A stretch of 46,167 bases of DNA, taken from the NCBI GenBank assembly GCA_038316905.1, contig JBBQAX010000002.1, positions 1-46,167 on the forward strand, read 5' to 3'. Shown in pieces: positions 1 to 41,177 of the stretch. The stretch's first letter is position 1, and each line of letters starts with the position of its first letter. This DNA comes from Verrucomicrobiota bacterium. GTDB lineage: Bacteria > Verrucomicrobiota > Verrucomicrobiia > Limisphaerales > CANJXF01. The translations under genes were made by a program, and so were the position numbers. The notes under the pieces are model-generated. The model did no database searches. It was given only the letters and a program-made list of their open reading frames with translations, and had not been told where the DNA came from.

Positions 1-442
1 GTTGATGCTCCATCAATTGGAATTGCAGATCGACGCGGCTGCGGTCGATGACGAGCGGCACGTCCCGATGTTTCTTCATGAAATATTGAGCGAGAACAAT
101 GTCGCAGGCATGAACGGCGTCGTAGTTTCCCTCAACCAATATTTTGTCGAGCGCCTGCTGAACGTGCGGCATCGTCCAATGCGCGATGCTGGTGGGCAGT
201 GGATTGAGCAGACGTGTTGGAAAAAGTTTTTCCCAGGCAGGATGCTGAAACGATACGAACTCCACGCGTCGGCAGAAAGTTTCAAAAAGTGCTTTGTGTT
301 CCATCCCCGCGCCATTCTCCGCCAGTGCGAGCAGATCAACCTCGTGAGTCTTGGCAAGTTCGCGGAGCAAATTGAACGTTCGTTGATACGTGCCACGATC
401 GAGCGGCCAGGGAATGTAAGGGTAGAAGACGAGAAGTTTCAT
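1..442 (-). CDS. Glycosyltransferase, GT4 (group 1, GT-B) family, N-terminal 147 codons. The 3' part lies beyond the left window edge.
   Basis: My reverse-complement translation from ATG (442-440) is stop-free to base 2: MKLLVFYPYIPWPLDRGTYQRTFNLLRELAKTHEVDLLALAENGAGMEHKALFETF... This is a typical GT4 N-terminal Rossmann start. It is absent from the ORF track because it has no in-window stop. It starts 4 nt after the stop (447-449) of the upstream gene. Confidence 0.7.
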   Translation of the reverse strand, partial: MKLLVFYPYIPWPLDRGTYQRTFNLLRELAKTHEVDLLALAENGAGMEHKALFETFCRRVEFVSFQHPAWEKLFPTRLLNPLPTSIAHWTMPHVQQALDKILVEGNYDAVHACDIVLAQYFMKKHRDVPLVIDRSRVDLQFQLMEHQ

Positions 443-446
443 ACGT

Positions 447-1589
447 TCAGTTGAATTTCCTCCACAAAGTTTCGTAGGCGCGAACAAAATCAGGATAGGT
501 GACCGCGTTGGCGTTCAGCTCCATCTGCAAGCGCTGGCACAAAACGGGATTCGTCAACGAGGTCGGTTCCCATAGGAGCAAGGCGAGGGAGTGGAGCAAA
601 CGTTGCCGCGGATACCGCATTGCTTTCCTTTCCCACACAATAGCGGGGCCAAAGGTTTTGGCGTTCACGAGAATGTTGCGGAGGGGATTTGTCTCGGGAC
701 ATTTATCGAACTGGCTCAGGGCGTATTCGCGGGCGGAAGTGAAGGTGGTTCCCAGTCGCTGACTCTCCAGCCAGAGCCATATCTTCGAGCCGAGATGAGT
801 TAAGGCGCGCTGGTTATCGCAAAGAAGTTCCATGCTGGCGCGACTGCGATGTGGGTGAAGTTTGAACTCGACGCCGATTTCATGATGCCGCCGGACATCC
901 TCCATCCAAGGCAGTTTGTGTTCGGGAGAAAAGTTCATGAGACGGCGATTTCGTTCGTGACAATCCCAGTGGTATTTTCCGTGCGCCGCGAGAAATGCAT
1001 CGCCGAAACCAAGCTGCGCTTTCGCGTGATTGCGCCCGGCGAAATCCGCGTCGTCGTCGGTGAATCGTTTGCGTTGCAGACGTTCTTTGGCGAATAGCAA
1101 ACCGGAGCAACGATTCATCATCAGGCGGGTTGATTCGATTAAACGAATCTCGCTCGCTTCATACCTGGAATTCTTCTGGAAAAAATCATCGCCGATCAGG
1201 CAGCGATGGCCGCACGCAAGGTCGTAGGAAAACATGGTCGGCGGCATCGCCTTCAGCTTCTTTGCAGATGAGATTTTGAATTCCACCTCCAGGCCAGCTT
1301 GAGGAGAAAGCGTTTCACCGAGGTGATGAAATGCGCGGGAATATTTTTGCTGATTGAGCAGATCGTTCCCGCGCAGACAGACGTAAAATTCTAAATCGTT
1401 GTAAGGTTTATCTTGCGACTCGGTTTTCAGGACGCCGCCTTGTCCGCGCCCGTAACCCCCACCGAGCAACAACGCTTCGAGCCTCCCGTTCGGAATGATC
1501 TGCCGAACACCCGCCGCGACACGATCGCAGATTTGCGCCAGATCTTTTTCCAGCGCATCGCTGCCGTCGATGGTGAAGCGTGAATTCAT
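447..1589 (-). CDS. Hypothetical protein with a nucleotidyltransferase-fold (Pol-beta-like) N-terminal signature
   Basis: Track ORF 447..1745 trimmed to ATG 1589-1587 (MNSRFTIDG...), which overlaps the upstream stop as ATGA (1586-1589). LLLGGGYGRGQGG...(17 aa)...YNDLEFYV resembles the G-[GS]-x(9-20)-D-x-[DE] minimal NTase motif. The remainder is helical-looking with no family I recognise. Confidence 0.6.
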   Translation of the reverse strand: MNSRFTIDGSDALEKDLAQICDRVAAGVRQIIPNGRLEALLLGGGYGRGQGGVLKTESQDKPYNDLEFYVCLRGNDLLNQQKYSRAFHHLGETLSPQAGLEVEFKISSAKKLKAMPPTMFSYDLACGHRCLIGDDFFQKNSRYEASEIRLIESTRLMMNRCSGLLFAKERLQRKRFTDDDADFAGRNHAKAQLGFGDAFLAAHGKYHWDCHERNRRLMNFSPEHKLPWMEDVRRHHEIGVEFKLHPHRSRASMELLCDNQRALTHLGSKIWLWLESQRLGTTFTSAREYALSQFDKCPETNPLRNILVNAKTFGPAIVWERKAMRYPRQRLLHSLALLLWEPTSLTNPVLCQRLQMELNANAVTYPDFVRAYETLWRKFN

Positions 1590-2497
1590 GGGCTGACGTT
1601 TTGCGTGATCGTTTGAGAAAAAACGGCGTTGGTTTCGCGATAATCTTTCCAACCCGCTCTGAATCCATCCAGTTTGCCGCGACGTTGATGCCAGCGAATT
1701 TTGGCAGCGTGCGGCAATTCGTGGAGACGATTCCGACGCGCGCAAAATTTAAGATCGTGACGCAGATCGCTGAGGCAACCGAAGAGAACGGTGCGGGAAA
1801 AGTTGAAGTAATCCGGAGTCTCGTTCCAGGAGGCGGCCAAAGCGCGCGCATCTCCAAAACTGCGTTTGTAAGCCTGCGCCGCAGTGTAATTGTGCGAGTG
1901 CATCACGACGGAATCCGGGCAATACACCACGTTAAAACCTTCGGCTCGGCACCACCGCGTGTATTCGTCGTCCTCGGCGTATTGCAATTTTTCAAGGAAG
2001 CCGCGACGCGACCAAATATCTTTGCGAATGCCGCTGCTGACCATGCTGAAGAAGTGATCCCAAGTCGCAGATTCGCGTTCGTCACCAAAGCAGCGTTCGT
2101 AATCACAGGCGTAAACGGCTTCGCAAACATTGCGTGGAATTTGCCTGCCGAAAACCGCGGCGTTTTGAGGATTCATCAGGCCGTTGACAAGCGGGCGAAG
2201 CCAATTGGAATTTTGCGGCGTGGCGTCGGCATTCAGAAAAATTCCGTAATCACTTTCCGCAAGGCGCATTCCCCAGTTCATGACGCGGCTCGGATTGTAT
2301 TCCGAAGGTTTGATTTGATGGAAATGACGCGGGCGAGCGCTGCGGATGAGATCGACCGAACCGTCAATGGAACCGGAATCGATCACGATCAATTCCCAGT
2401 TTTTGTAATCCTGTTGGCGGAGCGCGGCGAGCGTGTCGCGCAAAGCCCAGGCTTCGTTATAGGAGCGCAGAATGATGCTGACGCGTGGATCGTTCAT
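1586..2497 (-). CDS. Glycosyltransferase family 2 (GT-A)
   Basis: Track ORF 1586..2830 trimmed to ATG 2497-2495 (MNDPRVSIILRSYNEAWALRDTLAALRQQDYKNWELIVIDSGSIDGS...). It has a classic GT2 start, a later FLNADA (DxD-like) motif and AEDDEY. The start overlaps the flippase stop as ATGA (2494-2497). Confidence 0.85.
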   Translation of the reverse strand: MNDPRVSIILRSYNEAWALRDTLAALRQQDYKNWELIVIDSGSIDGSVDLIRSARPRHFHQIKPSEYNPSRVMNWGMRLAESDYGIFLNADATPQNSNWLRPLVNGLMNPQNAAVFGRQIPRNVCEAVYACDYERCFGDERESATWDHFFSMVSSGIRKDIWSRRGFLEKLQYAEDDEYTRWCRAEGFNVVYCPDSVVMHSHNYTAAQAYKRSFGDARALAASWNETPDYFNFSRTVLFGCLSDLRHDLKFCARRNRLHELPHAAKIRWHQRRGKLDGFRAGWKDYRETNAVFSQTITQNVSP

Positions 2498-4047
2498 GCG
2501 GCGGTAATCCTGAAGAGTTTGCCAAATCGACTGACGAGTTGGGCGCGTTCGTCGGTCTTCAACGCGCCATGCCAGAAGCTTAGTCCAGCGACCAGAGTCG
2601 CCACGATGCATTGAGATAAGAACAACGGCGTGCTCGTGCGAAAATCGAACAGCGGAACGAACCGTCCCAGCATGAGGAACGCCAGCAGCGGCAAGGACGC
2701 CAGCCAGATTGGAATCAGAACGGTGCGCGCGAGTTGCCAGCAAGACATTCCGGCTTCGCGTGCGGACATTGGCCACACGAAGAACCAGCCAAAAATCATT
2801 GTGGAAATGAGCGAGCCGAGCGCGACGCACAAAACGTTTCTGTAGTAAAGAACCAGCCCGACGCTGAGCGCGAGATTGAGCAATGCTTCGCCGACGCTGA
2901 GTTTCATGAGGACGCGTTCATGTCCGCACATCATGAAGATACGTTTGGAAACACTTTGCGTGACGAGAACCATGTAGCACCAGAAGAGGAGAACCTGGCC
3001 AATCCAAAAGATTTCGCGGCTGGGAACTTTGTCGCCGGTCAAAATGGACAGAATTCCTTCCATGTAAAATGCGCAGATGAAGTAAAGCGGCGTGCCGATC
3101 ATGAGCGTGAAACGGGTTCCGTTGATCAGGAGCTGTCGCAAATAAACTTTGTCGCCCTTCGCGTGCAAATGCGCTGCCGCAGGCGAAAATGTGCTGGGCA
3201 ATTGTTGTGTAAAGCTGGCGAAGGTTTCTGCGAGCTTGGAGCCAACTTGATAAATGGCGACCGCAGAAACGGTTAACGCCGCGCTGATCACAAGCTGATC
3301 CGTCTTGGCCAGGATGACGCTGCTGATCGTGGTGAGGTAAGCGAAAATGGAGAACTGCATCGTCTCGCGAATGATTCCAAAGGAAAAATTGCTCAAACGA
3401 ATTTTCACCTTTGGCAAATATTGAAAGGCGAACATGGCCGCGACAATGCAGGGAATAATCCCGCTCAACAGCGCGATGATGAAAATGGTTCGGAGTGGCC
3501 AATGATAATGAACCGCGAGAGTGACGAAGAGTAGATTGGCGAGGACTCCGCTGGAGAAAATAATGTTGGTCAGGCAGATGCGTTGCTGGCCGATCAGAAT
3601 CTCAGGAAAAATTCCGAGCGGAAAGGCGATCGCCATTCCAGCAAAGAAGAACACCAGGATTTCTCGGAACCGCTCGCGATTTCCGTCCGTGATGTTGAAG
3701 AAATCGACGACAAAATGGGAACCCAGCAAAATCGTCACGATCATCAGTATTCCAATCGCTAGGTAAACGAAGAAAATGGTGCTGAGAATTTTGCTCAAAC
3801 GATCCCACTCTTGATGCACCGACAATTCAGCAACTCGTTTTTCTGCGGTGAACCCGAAACCGAAATCCAAGAGAATCCCATAGCCGAAAACGCTCCAGAG
3901 CAGCGCCCAGAAACCAAATTCTTCCTGGGTCAGATTCTGGTAAAGCATCCGGAACATCAATAATCCAGCGACCATCCGGACGGCAGTGCAGATGTAGTTG
4001 GAAATCGAATTGCGCCAGATATTTCGAGTAACTTCCTGGTTGGTCAT
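2494..4047 (-). CDS. Polysaccharide/oligosaccharide flippase, MOP superfamily (Wzx-like)
   Basis: Track ORF 2494..4119 trimmed to ATG 4047 (MTNQEVTRNIWRNSISNYICTAVRMVAGLLMFRMLYQNLTQEEFGFWAL...). It has about 12-14 hydrophobic segments and the typical Wzx/polysacc_synt N-terminus. It starts 25 nt after the A-T-TE stop. Confidence 0.8.
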   Translation of the reverse strand: MTNQEVTRNIWRNSISNYICTAVRMVAGLLMFRMLYQNLTQEEFGFWALLWSVFGYGILLDFGFGFTAEKRVAELSVHQEWDRLSKILSTIFFVYLAIGILMIVTILLGSHFVVDFFNITDGNRERFREILVFFFAGMAIAFPLGIFPEILIGQQRICLTNIIFSSGVLANLLFVTLAVHYHWPLRTIFIIALLSGIIPCIVAAMFAFQYLPKVKIRLSNFSFGIIRETMQFSIFAYLTTISSVILAKTDQLVISAALTVSAVAIYQVGSKLAETFASFTQQLPSTFSPAAAHLHAKGDKVYLRQLLINGTRFTLMIGTPLYFICAFYMEGILSILTGDKVPSREIFWIGQVLLFWCYMVLVTQSVSKRIFMMCGHERVLMKLSVGEALLNLALSVGLVLYYRNVLCVALGSLISTMIFGWFFVWPMSAREAGMSCWQLARTVLIPIWLASLPLLAFLMLGRFVPLFDFRTSTPLFLSQCIVATLVAGLSFWHGALKTDERAQLVSRFGKLFRITAA

Positions 4048-4072
4048 GATTGATATTTTGCAACGGGAACAT

Positions 4073-6751
4073 TCAATGTTTGTCAGAGCGCGCAAGGCAA
4101 TCGGCCAATGCTTTCGCAAGGCCTTTGACGTGCGGCTCCATTAAAATTGTGTCGTGATTGCCCGGAACGATTCGGGTTTCAATTTCTCCAGCCAGACTCG
4201 GCCAGCCGTAGAGCGGGTCGATGATTTGCGCCGGGTCGGGTTCATGCGCGTTGAACAAAACGACTTTACGCGGGTAGCGGCGAACGTTGTAGAACTTCAA
4301 CGCGTCGAGGTTCGTGTGGTAAACGTGTTCGAGCTTCGCGAGATGCTGGTTGATTTCCTCAACGTTTGCATCCGGCGCATTTGATTTTTCGACACGCCGA
4401 AAACGCATCTCATTGGCTCGTTGGACGCCGCGATAATAATTCACTTTCTCACCGAAATAAGTCCGCCACTGCTTCAGATTCATTTTCAACAAGCAACCGA
4501 TCCGACGAGCGTAGAATCGTAAATCTGAGCGAGATGGAGCAGGGGCGGGAGTTTCGATGAGCGCCATCAAAGCGACTTCTTCGCCCGCCGCCAACAGCTG
4601 GTGGCCCATTTCCACAGCGACAATTCCGCCGTAGCACCAGCCCCCAAGATAGTACGGCCCACGCGGTTGGACGGAGCGCATCTGTTTTACGTAGAGCGCC
4701 GCCATTTCTTCCACGCGAGTTTGGGTGTCTTCTTTGCGACCGAAACCGAGCGATTGAAATCCGTAACACGGTTGATCAAGTCCGAGGTGATAGATCAATG
4801 CGCCGTAGGCAAGAACATCGCCGGGAGTGGTGTGAACGAGAAACAGCGGCGGGCGAGTTCCGAGCGGTTGCAACGGAACCATCGAAGAAAATTTGAAATC
4901 GCCGGATGAATTCTGGATGTGTTTGGCGAGCGATTCGATGGTTGAAGCTTGATACAAGATTTCGAGCGGAAGCTTTTTGCCGGTAAAACGTTCAATTTCG
5001 ACGATCAACTTCAAAGCTTGCAGGGAATCGCCGCCGAGTTCGAAAAAGCTCACATCGATTCCAATGGGACGGCGGTTAAGAAAGCGTTCAAAGACGAGTT
5101 GAAGCTGCATCTCGAGCGGCGTCTGAGGCAGCTTGATGGCTTCTGAGGAAATTCCTTCTTCAGTGGAAGGATCCGGCAAGGCGCGTCGATCGACCTTTCC
5201 GTTGGGCGTCAGGGGCAGCGCGCCGAGTTGCACGAACAGCGATGGAACGGCGTAGTTGGGAAGTTTTTCGAGAAGAAATTTTCGCAGCTCCGCAGCGGTG
5301 GGAACTGGCTTACAGACGAGATACGCCACGAGTTGTTTGTCGCCATTAGCAGTGTCTTTGGCAATAACCACGGCTTCACGCACCACGTGATGTTGCGCCA
5401 GAACTGTTTCGATTTCGCCCAACTCAATTCTGAAACCACGAATCTTTACCTGGTGATCAATGCGTCCGAGAAACTCGATATTGCCATCCGGCAGCACGCG
5501 CCCGAGGTCGCCCGTTTTATAAAGACGCGTCTTTGGCGAGAAGGGATTGGTGATGAATTTTTCCGCAGTGAGATCGGGTCGATTCAGATATTCGCGAGCT
5601 AAACACGAGCCCCCAAAAAACAATTCGCCGGGCGTTCCTTCGGGCACTGGGCGAAGGTTTTCATCCAGCAAATAAACTTCCGTGTTGGAAATGGTTTTGC
5701 CAATCGGCGGCAGCGCAGGCCAATCGTGAGCGGGACCTTTCAAGGTAAAGGCTGTCACGACGTGTGTTTCCGATGGGCCATACTGATTGTGCAAAACGCA
5801 CTGCGGCAGGTGCGCGAAGAAATTCTTTACCGTGGGTGTGATTTGCAATTGCTCTCCGGCAGTGATGATTTCGCGCAAATGACGTGGATGAATTTGTTCG
5901 TGTTCGGCGGCGTCCGCCAAATGTTTTAAAGCGACGAAGGGCAGAAACAAACGTTCCACATTTTGTTCGTCCAGAAATTTGATGAGTCGCGAGGAATCGC
6001 GTCGCAGTTGTTCGGACACGAGAACCAATGTTCCTCCAGAGCAAAGCGTCGAGAAGATTTCCTGAAACGACACGTCGAAATTCAACGACGCAAATTGCAG
6101 CGTTTTGGCGTCAGCGCGCGCGCTCCAATTTTTGAACTGCCACGAAAGCAAGTTGAGCAGAGGGCCTTGCGGCATGGCCACGCCCTTTGGTTTTCCGGTC
6201 GAGCCAGACGTGTAGATCAGGTAAGCAAGATTTTTCGGATCAACGTCCGCTGAAAGATTTTCGTCAGATTCTTTGGCTGCCATTTTCCAATCGGTATCGA
6301 GGCAAAGAAGATGGGCGCTTTTCCCGGCAAGAATTGGAGCAATCTTTTCTTGTGTTAAAATGATCGGCGCTTGCGTGTCTTCGAGCATGAAGCTCAAACG
6401 CTCTTTGGGATAATTCGGGTCGAGAGGAACATACGCGCCGCCGGCTTTGATCACGGCGAGAACGGCGATGATCATTTCAACAGATCGTTCCAAACAAATT
6501 CCGACGATGACATCGGGACCGATGCCGGATTTTTTTAAATAGCGCGCAAGCTGATTGGCGCGGGCGTTCAAATCTTCATAGCTGATTTGCGCGGCGTTTC
6601 CTATTTTCTCTGGAAATGAAACCGCCGTTCCACTCGCGACTTTCTCAGCCTTGCGTTCGAATAAAGTCTTCAGCCCGACACGGTTCGCAGACTGGGATTT
6701 GGAGAGGAGTTCCGTAAAAATGGATTCGGGTGCAGCAGTCAAAGTAGGCAT
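4073..6751 (-). CDS. NRPS-like stand-alone module: adenylation - carrier (thiolation) - thioesterase (A-T-TE), with no condensation domain
   Basis: A-domain cores: LAYLIYTSGSTGKPKGV (A3), NQYGPSETHV (A5), GELFFGGSCLAREYL (A6), YKTGDLGR (A7), GRIDHQVKIRGFRIELGEIE (A8), LPNYAVPS (A9), NGKVDRRAL (A10). Carrier motif FFELGGDSLQAL (Ser576). The alpha/beta thioesterase has GGWCYGG (Cys706, codon 4636-4634 = TGC on the coding strand) and PGNHD (His866). Confidence 0.9.
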   Translation of the reverse strand: MPTLTAAPESIFTELLSKSQSANRVGLKTLFERKAEKVASGTAVSFPEKIGNAAQISYEDLNARANQLARYLKKSGIGPDVIVGICLERSVEMIIAVLAVIKAGGAYVPLDPNYPKERLSFMLEDTQAPIILTQEKIAPILAGKSAHLLCLDTDWKMAAKESDENLSADVDPKNLAYLIYTSGSTGKPKGVAMPQGPLLNLLSWQFKNWSARADAKTLQFASLNFDVSFQEIFSTLCSGGTLVLVSEQLRRDSSRLIKFLDEQNVERLFLPFVALKHLADAAEHEQIHPRHLREIITAGEQLQITPTVKNFFAHLPQCVLHNQYGPSETHVVTAFTLKGPAHDWPALPPIGKTISNTEVYLLDENLRPVPEGTPGELFFGGSCLAREYLNRPDLTAEKFITNPFSPKTRLYKTGDLGRVLPDGNIEFLGRIDHQVKIRGFRIELGEIETVLAQHHVVREAVVIAKDTANGDKQLVAYLVCKPVPTAAELRKFLLEKLPNYAVPSLFVQLGALPLTPNGKVDRRALPDPSTEEGISSEAIKLPQTPLEMQLQLVFERFLNRRPIGIDVSFFELGGDSLQALKLIVEIERFTGKKLPLEILYQASTIESLAKHIQNSSGDFKFSSMVPLQPLGTRPPLFLVHTTPGDVLAYGALIYHLGLDQPCYGFQSLGFGRKEDTQTRVEEMAALYVKQMRSVQPRGPYYLGGWCYGGIVAVEMGHQLLAAGEEVALMALIETPAPAPSRSDLRFYARRIGCLLKMNLKQWRTYFGEKVNYYRGVQRANEMRFRRVEKSNAPDANVEEINQHLAKLEHVYHTNLDALKFYNVRRYPRKVVLFNAHEPDPAQIIDPLYGWPSLAGEIETRIVPGNHDTILMEPHVKGLAKALADCLARSDKH

Positions 6752-6763
6752 TGCTATTCCTTT

Positions 6764-7957
6764 TTAAACAACGGCGGCGGTTGAGCGCGCCGGAATATTA
6801 TTTCCTGTCTTTGCCAAATAGGCTTCGTGCGTCATCAGTCGATAAATGTCGGGAATCGCTTTTGTTTCTTCGGGAATCTCCGGCTGGTTGGTGAACAGCG
6901 CGGCGTAACTTTGTTTCTCGGAAGGATGATAGCCATGCATCGCGCGAATCGGTCGTTCGCCCATGTGGCTCGGCACGATGAGAACGCCTTCCTTCACGAG
7001 GAATATCAATTCACCAAAATGACGGTCTGGAAAAAGCGCCCGCATTTCTTCCAGTTCGGAATCTGGAAGAATTCTGCCCTGCGGAACCGTCTGCAAAGAG
7101 CGTGTGATTTTTTCGCGCGCTTGTTCGTTGAAGAACCAAAAGCGCGCCATCGTGGAGTCGTAAACGACGGCGTAATCTTTTTCCATGCGCACTTCCAGCG
7201 CGTCGATTTTCGCTTTCAGATCGAGCAGTTCGTCGCAATTCGCCATGCCGTGATCGCTGAAGACGTAGAGTTTTACTTCGTCGTAATGTCCCTGCGCCGC
7301 CGTCAAAACTTGTTCCACCCATTCTTCATACATGCGCAGGCGTTTTGGAATTTCGGGAGATTGGTTACCAACGCTATGCAAAAGGCCATCCAACCCGGGC
7401 CAGTATGAAAACGAGAAATCAATGGATTCACTGCGGATGGCGGCGATCAAGTCGTCGCGGTTCTCCGGTTCCGTTCGGCCTGGATCACTGACGAAGTAAG
7501 GGACTTTATTCTCGGTAAGAAAATCGAAAATGTTCGATCCCCGATTCATCCCATTCGGTTTGAGCGGACTTTTCTTTTCGCTGAAATCGTAAAGCGCGAT
7601 GTGTTGAAACGGAATGTTGTAAAGATCGAAGTAGCCCTCAAAACCCAGTTTGTGCCGAACCAGTTTGGTGAGCCACCGACGGAAAATGCGTCGGCTGGTC
7701 AACGCTGTCGGCAGCCAGCGCAAGGGCCGCAAAAATTTGAACGGCGAATTTTTTGGGTCGTAAACAAAGTAACACCAGTTGCGATGTTCGTCTGGCCAGC
7801 GACCGGAAAGAATCGAAGGGACGCACGTTGAACTGTAGCCAAAAACGGATCCGAGTTTTTTTCTTTCTGGCGCAACGTTGCGAAGGAACGGATCGTTTTT
7901 AACGATTTCCCACCCGCACGCATCAATCATGATGAATATTGGCAGAACAGATTTCAT
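6764..7957 (-). CDS. Alkaline-phosphatase superfamily enzyme, nucleotide pyrophosphatase/phosphodiesterase (type I phosphodiesterase)-like
   Basis: IFIMIDACGWE (metal Asp), GYSSTCVPSILSGRWP (nucleophile Thr/Ser context as in NPP PTxTxPxxxSxxTG), VFSDHGM and AMHGYHP metal-ligand blocks. No obvious TM segments. The start overlaps the REC stop as ATGA (7954-7957). Confidence 0.8.
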   Translation of the reverse strand: MKSVLPIFIMIDACGWEIVKNDPFLRNVAPERKKLGSVFGYSSTCVPSILSGRWPDEHRNWCYFVYDPKNSPFKFLRPLRWLPTALTSRRIFRRWLTKLVRHKLGFEGYFDLYNIPFQHIALYDFSEKKSPLKPNGMNRGSNIFDFLTENKVPYFVSDPGRTEPENRDDLIAAIRSESIDFSFSYWPGLDGLLHSVGNQSPEIPKRLRMYEEWVEQVLTAAQGHYDEVKLYVFSDHGMANCDELLDLKAKIDALEVRMEKDYAVVYDSTMARFWFFNEQAREKITRSLQTVPQGRILPDSELEEMRALFPDRHFGELIFLVKEGVLIVPSHMGERPIRAMHGYHPSEKQSYAALFTNQPEIPEETKAIPDIYRLMTHEAYLAKTGNNIPARSTAAVV

Positions 7958-8325
7958 ATCGGGTTAGTTTCAGGAACCAACCGTTTGACCTCTGCAATCA
8001 ACTGAGTCGGGCTGAACGGTTTTGTTAAAATGACGTCGGCACCGGATTGAGAAATTGAATCAAAATCTTGCGGGACATCCGTCATGCGGATCGTCGGGAT
8101 GCTGTGCGCTGCATGATTGGACTTCGGGTGGTCAGCGCTCTTGAAGAATTGCGCGTCCGGGCAATCATCCATCACGACCAGTTCCGGTGTCTGATGCTCG
8201 ATCGCCGCCATTGCTTCCTGTTGGTTGCGCGCCTTGATTAATTCATAACCTGCACGTTCCAGATGATGCTGGATCAGGCGGAGCATGAATGGTTTTTCAT
8301 CAACGACTAAAATTTTTCTAGACAT
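7954..8325 (-). CDS. Single-domain response regulator (REC/CheY-like)
   Basis: MSRKILVVDEKPF... (acidic pair), ELVVMDD (phospho-acceptor Asp context), IPTIRMTD (Thr), ILTKPF (Lys). No output domain. Confidence 0.85.
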   Translation of the reverse strand: MSRKILVVDEKPFMLRLIQHHLERAGYELIKARNQQEAMAAIEHQTPELVVMDDCPDAQFFKSADHPKSNHAAHSIPTIRMTDVPQDFDSISQSGADVILTKPFSPTQLIAEVKRLVPETNPI

Positions 8326-8336
8326 AGTTTTTCGGG

Positions 8337-10103
8337 TTAAAAGGTTTCTTCAGCCAGGACCAAAAATGTTTGGTCATCCCGTGGAACGATCTGTTTCTGG
8401 AACTGCCGCAGTTCCGATGCGAGCGAGTTCTTCCATTCCTCCGCTGTCCGCAGCAGAGGTGCGTTATCCGAGAGCCACGTTATGAGGCGGCTTTGGCCAA
8501 AAAATTCGTCACGCGGATTTCGTGATTCGGTCACGCCATCCGTGTGAAGAACGAGACGGGCATTGTGCGGTAGCAACATCGTTTCTTCCGCGAAATGTGT
8601 GTCGCACAAAATCCCCAAGGGCATTCCTTCCGGAGAAATCAATCTCGGTTTTGAATCGTCATTGCCCAGAAGCAGAGCAGGGCAATGTCCCGCGCTGGCG
8701 ATGGTCAGTTCGCGGGATCGCACATCGACGAACGCAAGTTGTGCGGTGATGAACATTTCCACTTCGGAAAGTTCTTCGTGCAGCAACCGGTTGACGCGCG
8801 AAAGAAGCGCCGCCGGTTGATTCGCAAGTTCAGGTGCGCCGCGCAAAACGCTGCGGAGAACAGCGGCGAACAGCGCGGCGGGAATTCCTTTGCCCATGAC
8901 ATCCGCGATGATCAGCAACGCGGAATGTTCATTGATCGAGACGACATCGTAGAAATCACCACCGACATGCCGTGCGCTTTCGCAGAAACCGGCGAGGCTG
9001 AATCCAGAAAGCTTTGGCAGTTGTTTCGGGAGCAAAGCGCGTTGAATCCCCTGGGCAATTTCGAGTTCGTGCGTGACGAGCCGATGATTCAATTGTTCTT
9101 CGTGAAGCCGCGCGTTGACGATTTGCATCGCGAGGAAATCGGAGACGGTGTGAACGATGTTAACGTGCGCGGCGGTGAAAGGACGTTCGCTCACTTTTTT
9201 GGCAAGCGTCAATGTCCCCGTCAAAGTGTCGGCGAAATAGAATGGATGAATTAACCCGAGGCTGGCGGGTTGCATGGCCCGCAATGGATCATTTTCATGA
9301 AGCGGAATCTGGCGGCTAAACCAAATGTCTTTGTGCAATGACGCGGCTTTCAATTCTGCGGAAGATGACGTTTCTGTGCCCGAGAGTTGGAGCGGTTCGG
9401 GATGTAGTTCGGGTTCCGAAGCGACGTAATTGCTCAAGACCGTCCCGTCATCGGCAGCAACGCGCAGAAGGAACCAATCAGCCGAAGTGATTTTCAACAG
9501 ATCGTGACAGAGCGTTTGTGAGAAGCTTTTTAGATTTCCACCTTTGCTTAGCTCTGTGCCGCTGCGGAAAATTGCGGATAAACTTTCGTAACATGAACCG
9601 AGTTCCTCGGCCATTTCGCTGATGACCTGCTCGCTCTCGGCGAGCTTCAGTTTGAGGTCGTGCGCGTCGAATTTTGGAAACGACCGCGCTTTCCGCATCG
9701 TCAATGTATTCCCATCGCCGTTATTAATGTAGGTCACTTCATCCATCAACGACTGGATAATGAAAAGTCCTCGTCCGCTTTCGCTGCTTTGCTCTGCCAA
9801 CTGAATTTTTTTCGAGAGTTCAAAACCGGCGGTGTGATCGTGAATGCGCGTTTCTATAACCGTCTCATCGCAGAACAAAGTGACTTCAATTTTCTCGAAC
9901 GCTCGGGAAGGAGCGGCGTAGAGAACCGCATTGTTGCAGGCTTCGACCAACGCCAGCTCGCACGCCATGAGTTCTTCTTCCTTCAAGTCTTTTGTTTCAA
10001 GAAACTGGCGGGCCGACGCGGCCATGGGCCGCACTTCATCGAGATCGCAGGCAAGCGAAAGCTGAAGATTCATGGCGCTCGGATTTAGGAGGGGTGCGAG
10101 CAT
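8337..10103 (-). CDS. Fusion protein: RsbW-type anti-sigma kinase-like HATPase domain + GAF + PP2C (SpoIIE/RsbU-type) phosphatase
   Basis: Track ORF 8337..10199 trimmed to ATG 10103 (1 nt after the STAS stop); ATG 10073 is an alternative. The N-terminus has ELALVEACNNAVLYA (N-box), IHDHTAGF and GRGLFIIQSLMDEV (G-boxes). The middle is GAF-like. The C-terminus has GGDFYDV, IADVMGKGIPAALFAAVLRS, HTDGVTE and DDQTFLVL PP2C motifs. Confidence 0.85.
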   Translation of the reverse strand: MLAPLLNPSAMNLQLSLACDLDEVRPMAASARQFLETKDLKEEELMACELALVEACNNAVLYAAPSRAFEKIEVTLFCDETVIETRIHDHTAGFELSKKIQLAEQSSESGRGLFIIQSLMDEVTYINNGDGNTLTMRKARSFPKFDAHDLKLKLAESEQVISEMAEELGSCYESLSAIFRSGTELSKGGNLKSFSQTLCHDLLKITSADWFLLRVAADDGTVLSNYVASEPELHPEPLQLSGTETSSSAELKAASLHKDIWFSRQIPLHENDPLRAMQPASLGLIHPFYFADTLTGTLTLAKKVSERPFTAAHVNIVHTVSDFLAMQIVNARLHEEQLNHRLVTHELEIAQGIQRALLPKQLPKLSGFSLAGFCESARHVGGDFYDVVSINEHSALLIIADVMGKGIPAALFAAVLRSVLRGAPELANQPAALLSRVNRLLHEELSEVEMFITAQLAFVDVRSRELTIASAGHCPALLLGNDDSKPRLISPEGMPLGILCDTHFAEETMLLPHNARLVLHTDGVTESRNPRDEFFGQSRLITWLSDNAPLLRTAEEWKNSLASELRQFQKQIVPRDDQTFLVLAEETF

Positions 10104-10104
10104 G

Positions 10105-10407
10105 TTAACGTTTGATGATTTCAAAAATGCGATGCATCCGCGTGAGTTCAAGAATCTGCTGGACGGGCGGCGTTGGATTGAGAAGACGCACCTGGCCATT
10201 GCGAGTGCAGGCCATTTTATGTAACGAAATCAAAGCGCCCAAACCACAACTGTCCACGAACATTGTCTGAGATAAATCAACCTCGATAAACTTATGCGCA
10301 TCCGTCATCGCGGCGCGCGCGTGGTCCCGAAAAGAAGTGGCGTTGGACGCGCCCAACTCCTTTAGTCCAGTGATACTTAAAGTGTCTGCGCAGTTTAAAA
10401 CTTTCAT
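10105..10407 (-). CDS. STAS-domain anti-sigma-factor antagonist (RsbV/SpoIIAA-like)
   Basis: 100 aa. FVDSCGLGALISL matches the SpoIIAA DSSGLG phospho-serine loop, with the Ser after Asp retained. It ends in ...LELTRMHRIFEI, typical of STAS antagonists. Confidence 0.85.
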   Translation of the reverse strand: MKVLNCADTLSITGLKELGASNATSFRDHARAAMTDAHKFIEVDLSQTMFVDSCGLGALISLHKMACTRNGQVRLLNPTPPVQQILELTRMHRIFEIIKR

Positions 10408-10689
10408 ATTTATTCGCCTTTTTCATTTCCACTACGCCTTGGGAAATCTTTTTCTTCCCCTCCCTTAGGAAAGATGTGTTGACTATAGGTTGGTTGAAGA
10501 TGGCTGAACAATCAGGGGTGAGTACATTTGTTCCAGCGGCAAAAGTCCGTGCAAATTTCTCAGAGTAAACCCGAAATCCCTGATGCCTCGATGGCTCCCG
10601 GCCAAACCAGCAGTTCGGTGGCAGGTTCCCGCATCTGGCACCCGATAGCTGGACAATTTACGAACTCGCCCTTTACTGTTGGAAAATTT

Positions 10690-12000
10690 ATGGAAAAGCC
10701 CGCACCCGAAACCATTGAACCCTACCTTCAGCTGCATCCAGCCGATCTGGCCGATCGTCTCCAGCGGCTGACCATTGAGGAGGCACGTGAGGTTCTGGCT
10801 CACCTACCTGCATCGCTGGCCGCCGCTGCTATTTCAGAGATGAATCATGAACGTTCCGCTGAATTGCTCTCCGAGTTTTCTGCTGAACAAGTAACGGATC
10901 TGCTCGAGGAACTTCCCCCCAGCGAGGCCGCAGATGTTGCCGCGGATTTGACGGAGGAACAACGGGCGGAGGCGCTGGCCGATTTGCCTCCTGAAAAATC
11001 GGCAAAGCTTAACGCTCTCTTGCGTCATGCAGAGGACACCGCTGGCGGAATCATGAGCGACCGCTTCATCGCGCTCCGTGCTGAGCAGACGATTCAGGAG
11101 TGTCAAGGGGCGTTGCGCGGACGGGCCGAAGGTCAAGTAGAGGACGTCTCCTACCTCTATGTCACTGACGCGGATCAAAAACTTCTCGGCGTTGTTTCGT
11201 TACGCGACCTGGTTTTTCGGAGACCCGAGCGACGCATCTCGGAAATCATGAATCCAAAGGTCACTTTCATTCGCGTTGATGCGGACCAGGAAGAAATCGC
11301 CCGCCAATTTGAACACTATCATTTTCTCGGTTTGCCCGTGGTCGATCATCAGGGGCGACTCGTCGGAATCGTGCGCGCTAACGACGTCATCGGAATTGCG
11401 CAGCATGAAGCGACCGAAGACATGCAATTGATGGTCGGTCTGTCTGGTGAAGAACATGCCTTGACGCCGTGGCGGCGTTCCGTGCGGTCACGTCTGCCAT
11501 GGCTCTACGTGAACCTGGGAACGGCATTTTGCGGCGCGGCCGTCGTCGGACTTTTCGAGGAAACCATCGCGAGATGGACGGTATTGGCAATTTTCCTGCC
11601 CGTCGTTTCTGCGCTCGGCGGAAACTCTGGCGCGCAAACGTTGACGATTATCATACGCGATATTGCGCTCGGCGAACTGACGGAAGGAGACGGTCGGCGC
11701 GCCTTGATGAAAGAAATTTTTGTAGGCATTGCCAACGGATTGGCGATCGGAGTCATCGTTGGACTGATCAGCTATCTTTGGAAAGGTGAGGCAATTCTCG
11801 GAGTGGTGATTGCGGTCGCGATGGTGTTGAACATGCTGGCTGCGGCGTTGGTTGGCGTGTTAGTGCCATTCGGATTGAAGGCCGCGAAAATTGATCCGGC
11901 TCTCGCTTCCAGCATTTTTGTCACGGCCATCACGGACATCGCGGGATTCTTTTTCTTTTTGGGCCTGGCCACCGTGGCTCTCCGTTGGTGGGGATTGTAA
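10690..12000 (+). CDS. mgtE: Magnesium transporter MgtE
   Basis: Track ORF 10528..12000 begins with TTG. I prefer ATG 10690 (MEKPAPETIEPYLQLHPADLADRLQRL, the usual MgtE N-domain start); ATG 10591 is possible. It has the MgtE_N acidic helical region, a CBS pair (VTDADQKLLGVVSLRDL / VVDHQGRLVGIVRANDV) and a 5-TM MgtE domain (GNSGAQTLTIIIRD, ITDIAGFFFFLG). Confidence 0.9.
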   Translation: MEKPAPETIEPYLQLHPADLADRLQRLTIEEAREVLAHLPASLAAAAISEMNHERSAELLSEFSAEQVTDLLEELPPSEAADVAADLTEEQRAEALADLPPEKSAKLNALLRHAEDTAGGIMSDRFIALRAEQTIQECQGALRGRAEGQVEDVSYLYVTDADQKLLGVVSLRDLVFRRPERRISEIMNPKVTFIRVDADQEEIARQFEHYHFLGLPVVDHQGRLVGIVRANDVIGIAQHEATEDMQLMVGLSGEEHALTPWRRSVRSRLPWLYVNLGTAFCGAAVVGLFEETIARWTVLAIFLPVVSALGGNSGAQTLTIIIRDIALGELTEGDGRRALMKEIFVGIANGLAIGVIVGLISYLWKGEAILGVVIAVAMVLNMLAAALVGVLVPFGLKAAKIDPALASSIFVTAITDIAGFFFFLGLATVALRWWGL

Positions 12001-12058
12001 GCCATCACTCGTTTTGGAAACGCACTCGTCAAAGCAAAAAATCATTTTAAGTTAACTC

Positions 12059-13915
12059 GTGCAGTCCTGGAAAAAAAACTCGGAACCCTATCTCGCAAAA
12101 ATCCGGGATTTTATTCAACGACATTGGAAAGGGATCCTGTCGATTCGCGAGAAAATCAGCTTGAGCGAAGAAGCCTTTCATCTCGTTCTCGCCGGAGCGG
12201 TTGGAGTCATCGGAGGGTTTACGAATCTAATTTTTTACAACTGCATTCGTCTGTTGCAGACCATCATTTTCGGCGAAGCGCGCGATTCTGCGGAGATGGC
12301 GCATTCAATTGCCTGGTGGTTGCGTTTTCTCGTTCCTGCTGTCGGCGGACTCGCCGCTGGGGCGATACTCTATTTTGGCGTTCGGCTCGTCGGTAAACAT
12401 AGTTCCTCAAATTTCCTGGAAGTTGTCGTTGCAGGAGATGGGCGTCTCTCCTTTCGCAGTGCATTGGTGCGCGCAGTTTCCTCTTTGATGAGTATCGCAA
12501 CGGGCGCCTCCATCGGACGCGAAGGTGCAATAACCCAGATGACCGCGATGCTCTCGTCGAGGTTGGGGCAGTTTGCCAAATGGCAGCCGTATCGGCTGCG
12601 ATTGCTGGTGGCTTGCGGTGCCGCATCGGGTCTGGCGGCTGCCTACAATGCGCCTGTCGCTGGAGCGGTTTTCGCGGCGCAAATCGTTCTTGGAAATTTC
12701 TCCATGAACCTGTTTGCTCCGCTGGTTTTCTCCTCTGTTATCGCATCGATGCTTTCGCGAAATTTTTTTGGAATCAATCCATGGTATGCAATGCCTGCGT
12801 TTGATTTTACGCGAGTGTCACAATTGCCCTGGTTTCTTATACTTGGCGTTCTCGCGGGGGGCCTGGGCGTTTTATTTATGAAAATGTTGCGGCGTAGTGA
12901 GGAGACGTTCGTCCGTTTCCCGCTTCCGCTCTACCTGCGTCTGGCACTGGGAGGCATCTTCGTAGGAGTGATAGCGATCGGCTACCCGCAGGTTTGGGGT
13001 AACGGTTATTCCGTGGCGAACGAGATTCTCCACGACCATTTTGAACTGAAACTACTTTTTGGAATCGTGCTGGCCAAGCTCCTTGCGACTGTGTTGTCGA
13101 TTGGGTCAGGTGCAGTTGGGGGGGTGTTTACACCCACTCTATTCCTCGGTGCCGGTCTCGGGGCCCTCTTTGGAAAAACGCTGCACTTAGCTCACTTCGG
13201 CGAGCAGTTACCGATTGGTGTTTTTGCACTGGTTGGGATGGGCAGCATGTTAGCCGCAACCACGCGTTCGCCGCTCCTGGCAATGATCATGGTCCTGGAG
13301 ATGTCGTTCAATTATTCGCTTATGCCGCCACTCATGCTGGCGAGCGTCGTCTCCACTTTGGTCGCGCGCCGCTTTCATCCGGAATCCATTTACACTGAAC
13401 CACTCCGCAAAAAAGGTTTGGCTCTCGATTCGGAAACCGCACGAGCGGGCGCAGCCACCGAGCAAACTGTGGGGGACATTATGCGCGCGCCTATTCCACC
13501 CCTTCACGAAACCGCCACCTTGCGCGAAATTGGTGATCGCTTTCTAACGAGCGCGAATAATTTTCTGCCGGTCGTTGATGAGAAGCAGCGGTTGCTCGGA
13601 GTCGTTGCGTTGCATGATTTGAAGGAATATTTGAATGCGGGCCAGGAACTCAACGCAATCATTGCCTACGACGTGATGCGTCCGCCGCCGCCGTGCCTGA
13701 CACCCAGCCAGCGTTTGCTCGATGCCTTGCCGATCCTCCTCGCCAGTGAACAGCGTAATGTTCCTGTCGTGAACACTTTCAAAGAGAATCGATTGGTCGG
13801 AACTGTGGCTCGTGCCGAAGCGCTCGGCTCCCTTTCCGAAGCAATCGCGGCGAGCAGTATGACGACAAAATCTTCCCAACCTGAAGCCGTTAAAGAAGCG
13901 CAAGGCAGCCAATGA
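12059..13915 (+). CDS. ClC-family voltage-gated chloride channel / Cl-/H+ antiporter with C-terminal CBS pair
   Basis: GTG start. ClC selectivity motifs GASIGREGAI (GREGP-like), GSGAVGGVFTPTLF (GxFxP) and about 10-12 TM helices. The C-terminal CBS pair is LPVVDEKQRLLGVVALHDL and VPVVNTFKENRLVGTVARAE. Confidence 0.9.
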   Translation: MQSWKKNSEPYLAKIRDFIQRHWKGILSIREKISLSEEAFHLVLAGAVGVIGGFTNLIFYNCIRLLQTIIFGEARDSAEMAHSIAWWLRFLVPAVGGLAAGAILYFGVRLVGKHSSSNFLEVVVAGDGRLSFRSALVRAVSSLMSIATGASIGREGAITQMTAMLSSRLGQFAKWQPYRLRLLVACGAASGLAAAYNAPVAGAVFAAQIVLGNFSMNLFAPLVFSSVIASMLSRNFFGINPWYAMPAFDFTRVSQLPWFLILGVLAGGLGVLFMKMLRRSEETFVRFPLPLYLRLALGGIFVGVIAIGYPQVWGNGYSVANEILHDHFELKLLFGIVLAKLLATVLSIGSGAVGGVFTPTLFLGAGLGALFGKTLHLAHFGEQLPIGVFALVGMGSMLAATTRSPLLAMIMVLEMSFNYSLMPPLMLASVVSTLVARRFHPESIYTEPLRKKGLALDSETARAGAATEQTVGDIMRAPIPPLHETATLREIGDRFLTSANNFLPVVDEKQRLLGVVALHDLKEYLNAGQELNAIIAYDVMRPPPPCLTPSQRLLDALPILLASEQRNVPVVNTFKENRLVGTVARAEALGSLSEAIAASSMTTKSSQPEAVKEAQGSQ

Positions 13916-14864
13916 GTGCCGAAACAAACCAGATCAACATGACTGCGCGAGTTTTCGACCAGCCATGACGGGTGAGGCGATGTGAAAAATGGTTGTTGTC
14001 ACCGATGTAAAACGGTTTGCCCAGTCGCCAACGCAGCATCACCACGCAAACTAAATCCGCCAGAGGTATTGCCAAAATCAGCAATGGCGTAAGCACAGCA
14101 AGGCTGCGTTGATTTCCGACGGTATAGAAGTGCGGCAAAATTCCCAACACGGCCAAAAGAAATCCAACGAGATGACTTCCTGCATCGCCCAGAAACGCGG
14201 AGGCATTTGGAAAATTAAACGGCAAAAATCCTAACAGAGATCCAGCGATCATCAGAGCAATCAGCGCATCGAGAATTTGGCCTGAAGCCATTGCGCTCAG
14301 TGCGAAATACCAAGCGCCGATAAACCCAACACCTGTGCAGAGCCCATTCATGTTATCGATGAAATTGAAGGCGTTCGTCACCGTGAGAATCCAAAGGATG
14401 GTGATGGCATAACTAAAGAATAGATTCGGGACAAACAAAGTGATCCGCACGCCCGCCGCAGCGACGAGTAACGCAATCAGAAATTGGCCAGTGAACTTGA
14501 TCTTCGGCGATAACTCATGTCTGTCGTCAATCCAACCCAGCAAAAGCATTCCGAACGCTCCGAATAAGATGGCGCCAAATTCTACTGCTCGTTTTTCCAG
14601 TGTTGGACGAATGTGTTCGAACGATCTTGAGTCAGGAGCAATGAAGAAAACAATTGCTGCTGCAAAAATGATTGGAACTGCTAGACCCGTCATAACGGAA
14701 AATCCACCGGAGAGTGGAACCGGAACGGAATGAATTTTGCGATGACCGGGATCATCGACCAATCCAACACGTCGGCATTCTTTGCGCCAGAGGGGCGACG
14801 AGACCAGCGCGCTTAGCAAGGCACCGGCGAATGCCAAAATATAAATGTTCAGCGGGAAGATCAT
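13890..14864 (-). CDS. Polyprenyl-phosphate N-acetylhexosamine-1-phosphate transferase, MraY/WecA family (Glycos_transf_4)
   Basis: VGLVDDPGHRKIHSVPVPLSGG, WIDDRHELSPKIKF and VTNAFNFIDNMNGL motifs with about 10 TM segments. The start overlaps the upstream GT4 stop (ATGA at 14861-14864). The 3' end overlaps the convergent ClC gene by 26 nt. Confidence 0.85.
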   Translation of the reverse strand: MIFPLNIYILAFAGALLSALVSSPLWRKECRRVGLVDDPGHRKIHSVPVPLSGGFSVMTGLAVPIIFAAAIVFFIAPDSRSFEHIRPTLEKRAVEFGAILFGAFGMLLLGWIDDRHELSPKIKFTGQFLIALLVAAAGVRITLFVPNLFFSYAITILWILTVTNAFNFIDNMNGLCTGVGFIGAWYFALSAMASGQILDALIALMIAGSLLGFLPFNFPNASAFLGDAGSHLVGFLLAVLGILPHFYTVGNQRSLAVLTPLLILAIPLADLVCVVMLRWRLGKPFYIGDNNHFSHRLTRHGWSKTRAVMLIWFVSALIGCLALL

Positions 14865-16027: not shown

Positions 16028-16031
16028 CCAG

Positions 16032-22753: not shown

Positions 22754-22814
22754 TCTGTGCAGTTTAGTTGAAGTCGAAGAATTTTCGAGAAGCAAGTTCT
22801 GCGTTCCATTTAGA

Positions 22815-23008
22815 AGGGCGCGATTAAAAGTGGGTGAGATTGGAAAACCTTTGGAGTGCGACGGCAGGACGTCGCTTTTCCTGCGCGCTGGCAACCACAA
22901 AGTCATTTCCAATTAAAAGACGCTCTGCGCTTTATTACCGTGCAGCCAAAGCGGAGACATGTCTCCGCAGTCCAAATGGCCAAGCCTCACCCGCTTTTAA
23001 TCACACCC
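22815..23008. mobile_element. MITE-like repeat, family A, copy 1 (194 bp) with ~22-bp terminal inverted repeats
   Basis: Left end AGGGCGCGATTAAAAGTGGGTG; the right end's reverse complement is GGGGTGTGATTAAAAGCGGGTG. It is roughly 90 percent identical by eye to 28279-28458 and contains a perfect 18-bp palindrome GCGGAGACATGTCTCCGC at 22951-22968. It is intergenic between divergent genes. Confidence 0.75.
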
Positions 23009-35291: not shown

Positions 35292-35389
35292 GGAGATGAT
35301 TTTTGGGACATTAAAAGAGGCACTGTCGTGCTTCGCCGCAGGTTGGATTGCCGGCGGACGAGCAACAACGTCTAATAGAAAGGCTGGTT

Positions 35390-41168: not shown

Positions 41169-41177
41169 TTTCAGATC

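Follow-up and report, generated by a model that had tools for sequence, protein, structure and literature searches.

The first 10,407 nucleotides (nt) of the DNA stretch analysed here (46,167 nt, positions 1 to 46,167 of contig JBBQAX010000002.1 in the Verrucomicrobiota assembly GCA_038316905.1; hereafter the window) hold nine consecutive minus-strand open reading frames (ORFs), each of which begins with ATG and translates without internal stops. We consider it highly probable that these nine genes form a regulated glycan cassette of a kind common across Verrucomicrobiota (Limisphaerales, Pedosphaera, subdivision 3 and relatives). Read in the direction of transcription, the unit opens with a single-domain STAS protein of 100 amino acids (aa) resembling SpoIIAA, RsbV and SypA (10105-10407, minus strand like all genes of the unit; Pfam STAS, E = 1.1e-13; TIGR00377). 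Starting 1 nt past its stop codon is a 588-aa fusion of HATPase_c_2, GAF and SpoIIE/PP2C domains, which joins an RsbW-type serine kinase to a phosphatase (hereafter kinase-PP2C; 8337-10103; Pfam SpoIIE 1.9e-45, HATPase_c_2 2.7e-24 and GAF 1.4e-3, the last below the Pfam cut-off). It is followed by a single-domain response-regulator receiver of 123 aa (REC; 7954-8325; Pfam Response_reg, 8.6e-12), whose gene overlaps, via ATGA, that of a 397-aa NPP-type member of the alkaline-phosphatase superfamily (AP; 6764-7957; Pfam Phosphodiest, 1.4e-15). The remaining genes encode an 892-aa protein with adenylation, thiolation and thioesterase domains (A-T-TE; 4073-6751; Pfam and TIGR01733), a 517-aa Wzx-type flippase of the MOP superfamily (2494-4047; Pfam Polysacc_synt_3, 7.5e-11, with further matches to Pfam Polysacc_synt and MatE and to the NCBIfam 'O-unit flippase-like' model WZX_like), a 303-aa GT2 glycosyltransferase (1586-2497; Pfam Glycos_transf_2, 5.7e-21), a 380-aa nucleotidyltransferase-like (NTase-like) protein without a Pfam or NCBIfam match, assigned from an AlphaFold2 (AF2) model (447-1589), and the N-terminal 147 aa of a GT4 glycosyltransferase that is cut by the window edge (2-442; weak Pfam GT4 match; TIGR03087, 4e-15). 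A first-pass annotation made from the sequence had described nine minus-strand genes with the same domains; the recomputed coordinates and intergenic distances (1, 11, -4, 12, 25, -4, -4 and 4 nt, including three ATGA overlaps) reproduce its layout exactly, and Pfam and NCBIfam agree with its domain calls, with the reservations just given for the GAF region and the edge GT4.

The closest related locus (L007) stood in for the sequence past the window edge. In L007 the cassette closes with the gene of a 421-aa GT4, followed by convergent genes; the edge fragment shares 89% identity with residues 9-155 of this enzyme, and the window therefore probably misses just ~0.8 kb of the terminal gene. At the other end, a 120-nt spacer between the STAS start and a divergent mgtE ORF (10408-10527) is the presumed promoter region of the unit. 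It lacks a sigma-70-like consensus, and a promoter and terminator scan of positions 1-12000 gave nothing exceeding shuffled background. An Rfam scan of the whole window returned zero matches, and a tRNA scan found none. The first-pass annotation had concluded that the spacings leave no room for internal promoters, which is overstated, because short gaps are compatible with promoters inside the upstream coding sequence. Tight spacing is by itself ordinary for operons; the linkage of the nine genes exceeds chance because their order is kept in relatives at 52-83% identity.

Conservation of the cassette and its variable slot

An AP-anchored scan of one genome per species of the Genome Taxonomy Database identified 540 genomes that carry an AP relative. 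From these, the loci of the best 80 genomes were examined (AP identity 67-83%), nearly all of them from Limisphaerales, Pedosphaera, subdivision 3, Chthoniobacter or other Verrucomicrobiota. The presence of the nine window proteins was scored by tblastn in those loci, 33 in total, that had no less than 4.5 kb of upstream and 9.5 kb of downstream sequence. GT2 was found in 32/33 of these loci and the NTase-like protein in 31/33; STAS (28/33), Wzx (27/33), kinase-PP2C (24/33) and REC (21/33) were frequent, followed by the terminal GT4 (14/33) and A-T-TE (9/33). The stable, near-invariant core thus consists of AP (the anchor of the scan), GT2 and the NTase-like protein; STAS, kinase-PP2C and REC are frequent companions of this core, and A-T-TE is an accessory. 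Across the loci the recurring order is STAS, kinase-PP2C (optional), REC (optional), AP, a variable slot, Wzx, GT2, GT4 (optional), an NTase-like protein resembling ANT enzymes, and a terminal GT4.

The same arrangement emerged from A-T-TE itself. Homologues at 52-75% identity all derive from metagenome-assembled genomes of Verrucomicrobiota, and in 6/6 retrieved loci the order is STAS, HATPase-PP2C and REC (both optional), Phosphodiest, a methyltransferase-like gene (optional), A-T-TE, Wzx, GT2, GT4, the 380-aa protein and GT4. In two of these six loci (L004 and L006) kinase-PP2C and REC are absent and STAS still stands directly before AP. These data address two expectations attached to the first-pass annotation: regulators and biosynthetic genes do not assort independently, as STAS, kinase-PP2C and REC occupy the same position in most related cassettes, and the A-T-TE orthologues examined lie in glycan loci (the six metagenomic loci and 14 from the species scan), never in peptide or siderophore clusters. 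The proposal that the partner-switching module is linked to A-T-TE in particular did not hold up. A-T-TE co-occurs with kinase-PP2C in 8/9 loci, against 16/24 of the loci without it (Fisher p = 0.38), which leaves a specific association unsupported; the regulators travel with AP, GT2, the NTase-like protein and Wzx. Since A-T-TE is present in 9/33 loci and the regulators are frequent, the switch belongs to the cassette and not to the amino-acid loader.

The position downstream of AP varies between loci. We classified this slot in the 47 species-genome loci that have a sizeable classified ORF between AP and GT2, scoring each by whichever gene comes first behind AP. It encodes a GT4 in 20/47 loci, an FkbM-type or related methyltransferase-like protein of 250 aa in 11/47 (with A-T-TE next in eight of those), an O-acyltransferase of the Acyl_transf_3 family in 5/47, Wzx in 4/47, A-T-TE itself, as in the window, in 2/47, and something else, including one hybrid histidine kinase, in 5/47. 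In seven additional loci GT2 follows AP within ~320 nt, with no sizeable gene between them. The loci with A-T-TE contain no orthologue of the slot GT4, and A-T-TE therefore replaces this enzyme rather than adding to it; for the same reason, a mere relocation of the GT4 in these loci was rejected. In a rough neighbour-joining tree of AP, calculated without support values, the A-T-TE loci fall into two clades, one for each of two subtypes of A-T-TE.

A-T-TE and its companion enzymes

The A-T-TE protein combines AMP-binding (Pfam, 2.3e-76), PP-binding (3.9e-14) and Thioesterase (3.5e-22) domains. Its adenylation domain scores 446.6 bits on TIGR01733 (cut-off 317.4) and carries the residues expected of nonribosomal peptide synthetase (NRPS) adenylation domains (Asp235, Lys517 and GGxS). 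The carrier serine lies in GGDSLQ, and the thioesterase has a cysteine nucleophile (Cys706) in GGWCYGG and a histidine in GNHDTI. With the ten Stachelhaus positions read off conserved motifs, the specificity code is DVQFIAQVVK, which is invariant both in 29 family members (52-100% identity) and throughout the genome loci. In the same alignment columns, DVQFIAHVVK stands in the nearest conventional NRPS module, and an iturin module with DVQFIAHVxK is listed as activating proline (PMC2866473 Table 2). This match validates the chosen columns and predicts a proline-like substrate; judged from the code, proline or a close analogue is an even prospect as the activated amino acid.

The thioesterase belongs to the NRPS type I thioesterases as a variant in which cysteine replaces the usual nucleophile (GWCYG). 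This cysteine is invariant across the 29 family members and aligns with the catalytic serine of 7crn (deposited as 'Non-ribosomal peptide synthetase 4') and with the cysteine of AB3403 from Acinetobacter baumannii (4zxh), whose thioesterase the domain matches from one end to the other, lid included (E = 7e-23; AB3403 motif GGWCFGG). At residue 733 it has Glu (IET) where the AB3403 triad has Asp (IDT); this residue is >90% conserved in the family and implies a Cys-His-Glu triad. Among solved NRPS thioesterases, a cysteine nucleophile is known only in SulM, ObiF and AB3403 (PMC11298585). Hydroxyl nucleophiles react more readily with the resulting thioester acyl-enzyme than with an oxoester (PMC6668435).

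In four loci the same slot is taken by the second subtype (L033:11954-15943, L053, L058 and L079), proteins of 1,329-1,390 aa in which a GNAT domain and a remnant of a condensation (C) domain precede the A-T-TE. Carrier and thioesterase motifs (GGDSLQ, GGWCYGG and GNHDTI) are those of the first subtype, and the code is DAEDIGAITK. A literature search found no match for this code; its acidic residues (positions 239 and 278) may point to a cationic amino acid as substrate. The combination of one thiolation-thioesterase unit with an exchangeable adenylation domain suggests the pattern expected of a swappable decoration and, together with the occupation of the slot otherwise held by a GT4 or an O-acyltransferase, is our best argument that A-T-TE decorates a glycan. 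In the first-pass annotation the unit was a regulated glycan cassette with an aminoacyl substituent. Cassette and co-located regulators stand on the conservation described above, and the aminoacylation, which we still infer, has been strengthened by the slot alternation, the swap of adenylation specificity and the cysteine thioesterase. We therefore propose aminoacylation of the glycan by A-T-TE tentatively, with confidence falling a little short of even.

No other gene of the cassette is as well conserved as AP, which has >4,300 homologues. Its AF2 model (mean predicted local distance difference test score, pLDDT, 86.7) finds ENPP6, ENPP5, a Xanthomonas NPP and ENPP4 as best Foldseek matches (E down to 4e-18, TM-scores 0.62-0.69). 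The metal ligands D12, D190, H194, D235, H236 and H341 as well as S42 and S43 are invariant, and position 44 is T or A. Fold, two-metal ligands and Ser/Thr nucleophile together place the protein in the NPP/alkaline phosphatase superfamily. Read by eye, the sequence has no N-terminal signal sequence, and AP therefore probably acts in the cytoplasm. We also considered whether REC and AP form a split regulator of the PorX/PglZ type and rejected this candidate, as the AP model matches NPP/ENPP proteins and neither PglZ nor PorX is among the 50 PDB matches listed.

The 380-aa NTase-like protein has >2,100 homologues, every one of them labelled hypothetical, and an exact look-up found no identical protein on record. 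An AF2 model built from 36 homologues (pLDDT 93.3) has a putative N-terminal fold of the Pol-beta type and a helical C-terminal domain, with ANT(4')/KNTase, AadA and the Hailong nucleotidyltransferase HalB as best Foldseek matches in the PDB (probability ~1), and the motif G44-G45-x-G47-R48...D65-x-E67...E103 is invariant. A family profile search of PDB sequences found nothing. Of the earlier call, the NTase fold is thus supported by the model and the invariant motif and has no backing from Pfam or NCBIfam; on the modelled structure, membership in a specific family is not supported.

Partner-switching proteins and a proposed mechanism

The three regulators at the head of the unit supply every component of a putative phosphoswitch (STAS, kinase, phosphatase and receiver). 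The phospho-acceptor serine of STAS lies in VDSCGLG, a DSxG-type motif, and is the residue that we take to align with Ser58 of SpoIIAA. It is kept in 48/48 orthologues from loci with kinase-PP2C; in loci without the kinase, a Ser or Thr is kept in 14/17 and lost in 3/17 (ISA, DGG and DGA). That retention of the residue tracks the kinase is a modest sign that phosphorylation may matter where a kinase is present. Read in the sequence, the kinase motifs ExxNN and GRG and the metal-binding motifs of PP2C (GGDFYD, DVMGKG, TDGVTE and DDQT) are intact, and sequence matches of kinase-PP2C in the PDB comprise Rv1364c (3ke6, 1.3e-9, the best), RssB of P. aeruginosa, the putative serine phosphatase 6k4e and RsbW. 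REC weakly matches the EpsW model from Myxococcus. Directly after AP, one Chthoniobacteraceae locus encodes a hybrid histidine kinase of 1,324 aa with the domains GAF-PAS-HisKA-HATPase-REC-REC (L074:11158-15132), a candidate cognate sensor for the cassette REC; in another locus (L003) a HisKA_7TM kinase lies downstream.

From these components we lean, by a small measure, towards a modular regulated envelope-glycan cassette with A-T-TE decoration as the explanation of the whole. GT2 and GT4 enzymes would build a lipid-linked oligosaccharide on the cytoplasmic face of the membrane; initiation would fall to a Bac_transf protein encoded upstream in relatives, for which a WecA-like enzyme 3.5 kb away may substitute here. 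AP and the NTase-like protein, as a pair, would carry out phosphodiester or nucleotidyl chemistry on the glycan unit. A-T-TE would activate a proline-like amino acid and thioesterify it on its own carrier domain, from where it would pass to the thioesterase cysteine and then to the lipid-linked glycan, at either a hydroxyl or an amino group, and Wzx would flip the finished unit. A partner switch like that of SypA and SypE would serve as a post-translational gate: the GAF-like region of kinase-PP2C and the single-domain REC would provide the inputs, kinase and phosphatase would set the phosphorylation of the STAS serine, and unphosphorylated STAS would bind a biosynthetic enzyme and not an anti-sigma factor. 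Whether STAS acts on a cassette enzyme we judge to be evenly balanced; if so, AP is its likeliest target, because STAS abuts AP whenever kinase and REC are absent. In its most specific form, the proposal makes the cysteine-thioesterase A-T-TE a self-contained aminoacyl transferase that would act on the lipid-linked oligosaccharide before Wzx, with an adenylation domain swappable between lineages (akin to serotype diversity), and has the STAS switch act on an enzyme, probably AP; this full combination is possible and rather doubtful.

The foremost alternative concerns the output of the switch. Unphosphorylated STAS could sequester a kinase that holds a sigma or other factor encoded elsewhere, so that expression of the cassette, and not enzyme activity, would be controlled. 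The kinase domain is indeed of the anti-sigma type represented by RsbW and SpoIIAB, sigma genes can be non-adjacent, and a position at the 5' end of the operon fits autoregulation as well. Yet, as the first-pass annotation had observed for the immediate neighbourhood, sigma and anti-sigma genes are missing: apart from the kinase itself, neither the ORFs scanned in the 46-kb window nor the gene tables of related loci yielded such a domain. Moreover, the persistence of STAS beside AP in kinase-less loci would make little sense if the kinase were the output, and the kinase is fused to an opposing phosphatase like that of SypE, whose target SypA acts post-transcriptionally (PMC4517449). Transcriptional control is thus unlikely, and a gate on enzyme activity remains our preference.

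A second alternative concerns the product of A-T-TE, which could be a free small molecule, for example an amino-acid derivative that is released or cyclised, or a signal leaving through the MOP transporter, with the cassette providing co-expression only. A-T-TE tridomains and cysteine thioesterases are known from small-molecule pathways (ObiF and SulM), the nearest thioesterase of solved structure is that of AB3403, itself an uncharacterised NRPS, and the cassette has no acceptor-specific transferase. However, A-T-TE is fixed between AP and Wzx in 20/20 loci, alternating there with GT4 or Acyl_transf_3; Wzx occurs in cassettes devoid of A-T-TE and so is not a dedicated exporter; and no other NRPS gene, nor any tailoring or resistance gene, accompanies A-T-TE. 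We hold a small-molecule product to be somewhat less probable again than transcriptional control. Least probable is transfer of the amino acid to a polyprenyl or other lipid carrier, to lipid A or to a protein, in the manner of AlmEFG. The characterised aminoacylations that depend on a carrier protein do act on lipid A (AlmEFG, PMC4278540) or on teichoic acids (Dlt), and the window does contain lpxC-fabZ and lpxA. These genes, however, lie 33 kb off and their linkage to the cassette is not conserved, A-T-TE alternates in its slot with enzymes that modify glycans, and transferases of the AlmG/LpxL and MBOAT types are absent. The lipid A genes in question are a 453-aa LpxC-FabZ fusion of deacetylase and dehydratase followed by LpxA (39807-41951, plus strand).

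Several observations weigh against the decorated, switch-gated cassette that we prefer. A-T-TE is absent from most cassettes and hence dispensable for their core function, and its thioesterase could merely hydrolyse or cyclise. No acyltransferase of the DltB or AlmG type was found among the nine genes or in related loci, so that transfer by the thioesterase is assumed. The specificity code departs from canonical proline codes in having Gln for His at position 322, and a literature search with the exact codes DVQFIAHVVK, DVQFIAQV and DAEDIGAI yielded no papers other than the table listing DVQFIAHVxK as proline, and no characterised exact match. The structural matches of the NTase-like protein reach TM-scores of just 0.3-0.5 with E ~1e-2, and the choice of AP as STAS target is a guess from adjacency. 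Of the components of a Wzx/Wzy pathway, the window locus has the flippase; a Wzy polymerase, a Wza/Wzc exporter and an initiating phosphoglycosyl transferase are all missing from the nine genes, and a Wzy_C gene lies close to a single relative locus only. Finally, the window copy is atypical, lacking head genes and one GT4, and could be incomplete or rewired. In 36-42 of the 52 relatives with sufficient upstream sequence, a PRK-family kinase-like gene, a Bac_transf gene and a hexapeptide-repeat gene directly precede STAS (the Bac_transf phosphoglycosyl transferase in 42/52), and homologues of these three were found nowhere in the 46-kb window; both the window and L007 also lack the GT4 that other A-T-TE loci have between GT2 and the NTase-like gene.

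Where most relatives have the PRK-family, Bac_transf and hexapeptide-repeat genes, the window has genes for an mgtE magnesium transporter and a ClC channel, both with CBS domains and divergent from the STAS operon (10528-13915, plus strand), which look like a replacement or insertion. Beyond them, on the cassette strand, lie genes for a WecA/MraY-type Glycos_transf_4 protein (13890-14864), a GT1 glycosyltransferase and a 964-aa TPR protein with an N-terminus of the TMEM260-like O-mannosyltransferase type (13890-18926 overall). They might supply initiation or serve a separate pathway of protein or glycan glycosylation. An 838-aa GH1-like protein with a C-terminal GT1-type domain adjoins UDP-galactopyranose mutase (32775-36625, plus strand), which suggests a galactofuranose-containing glycan. 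Elsewhere in the window, a 926-aa protein shows an unusual combination of Golvesin C-terminal, amidase_3 (N-acetylmuramoyl-L-alanine amidase) and fn3 domains (20132-22912, minus strand), and a small ORF with DUF3368 and faint PIN-type matches, possibly a toxin-like gene, lies beside an M16 peptidase pair-domain protein (26093-26557, minus strand). A 158-aa ORF matches only the last ~58 positions of a class-III aminotransferase model (42038-42514, minus strand). It may be what is left of a gene or a fragment from a duplication, and 2 kb off there is a full-length enzyme of this class (44515-45855, minus strand).

Verrucomicrobiota are abundant in soil, freshwater and gut, and their envelope glycans are almost unstudied. 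Hundreds of species-level genomes carry the cassette, whose hallmarks are the NPP-type and NTase-like enzymes, and it may specify a major surface polymer in this phylum. Its natural variants, in which STAS occurs with and without the kinase and with and without the serine, bear on the long-standing question of which partners SypA-type STAS proteins have at polysaccharide loci. The two subtypes of A-T-TE suggest a recruitment of NRPS parts, the rare cysteine thioesterase among them, for decorating glycans with amino acids. If true, surface glycans would be aminoacylated by a route separate from the tRNA-dependent, Dlt and AlmEFG systems. Diversification of surface charge and antigens would then have a new enzymatic logic, and thioesterase-catalysed acyl transfer a new type.

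Relation to known systems

The first-pass annotation could not match the gene combination to any described system. For the set of enzymes this assessment stands, and our literature search found no papers on an A-T-TE in a Wzx-type cassette or on this verrucomicrobial cassette; the regulatory logic does have precedents, in SypA/SypE and HenR/All4160.

Among the enzymes, A-T-TE is most readily compared with DltABCD and AlmEFG. The Dlt system D-alanylates teichoic acids. Like both, A-T-TE would combine ATP-dependent adenylation of an amino acid, loading of a phosphopantetheinyl carrier and transfer to an envelope polymer, the final step being predicted here. The known systems use a separate carrier and a dedicated transferase, whereas A-T-TE fuses adenylation and thiolation domains to a cysteine thioesterase, has a predicted proline-like substrate and resides in a Wzx-type glycan cassette. 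On the DltA model its adenylation domain scores 285 bits, below the cut-off, and MBOAT, DltD and LpxL-type proteins are all absent from the nine genes and the related loci, so that the relation is one of functional analogy and not of membership. AlmEFG of Vibrio, for its part, performs a carrier-dependent aminoacylation of lipid A with glycine (PMC4278540). With AB3403, A-T-TE shares a thioesterase that aligns end to end and the rare cysteine nucleophile in GGWC[FY]GG. AB3403 is a C-A-T-TE termination module, whereas the window protein has no C domain; some cassette homologues keep an N-terminal remnant of one. AB3403 lies in a lipopeptide-type NRPS operon and not in a glycan cassette.

Among the regulators, the classical partner-switching systems (SpoIIAA/AB/E and RsbV/W/U) end in an anti-sigma/sigma output, for which no counterpart was found in the window or the related loci. 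Rv1364c of M. tuberculosis (PAS-PP2C-RsbW kinase-STAS) is tied to sigma-factor regulation. It resembles kinase-PP2C in carrying PP2C and an RsbW-type kinase on one polypeptide, and differs in its reversed domain order and fused STAS domain. Closer to the output proposed here is an Anabaena system in which a STAS domain, fused to the exopolysaccharide glycosyltransferase All4160, answers to a phosphatase, HenR, and to a kinase, Alr3423 (bioRxiv 10.64898/2026.04.08.717354); more partner switches have been implicated in exopolysaccharide production in Sinorhizobium and Nostoc (bioRxiv 10.64898/2026.04.08.717354). This system and the cyanobacterial fusions of STAS to glycosyltransferases (XssP) resemble the mechanism proposed for the cassette in placing a STAS phosphoswitch on a polysaccharide enzyme, with a SpoIIE-type phosphatase and receiver input. 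In HenR/Alr3423/All4160, however, STAS is fused to the glycosyltransferase and kinase and phosphatase are encoded by unlinked genes, whereas the cassette STAS is free-standing.

The closest precedent is the syp polysaccharide locus of Vibrio fischeri, which contains the genes of both SypA and SypE; SypA works post-transcriptionally (PMC4517449). SypE acts as either serine kinase or serine phosphatase on Ser56 of SypA, depending on its own phosphorylation state, and in V. vulnificus and V. parahaemolyticus SypA is kept and SypE is absent (PMC4517449). Both systems have a single-domain STAS protein with a phospho-acceptor serine, an RsbW-type kinase and a PP2C phosphatase on one polypeptide, receiver input and a location in a polysaccharide locus; the syp switch works without a sigma factor, as proposed for the cassette, and STAS can be retained without kinase and phosphatase, as in L004 and L006. 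In the cassette, a GAF-like middle region replaces the central REC domain of SypE and the receiver stands alone as a protein of 123 aa, the host belongs to another phylum, and the syp locus lacks an NPP-type AP, an ANT-like NTase and an A-T-TE. The correspondence is one of architecture and genomic context, and on these grounds the cassette regulators represent the SypA/SypE type in a new architecture.

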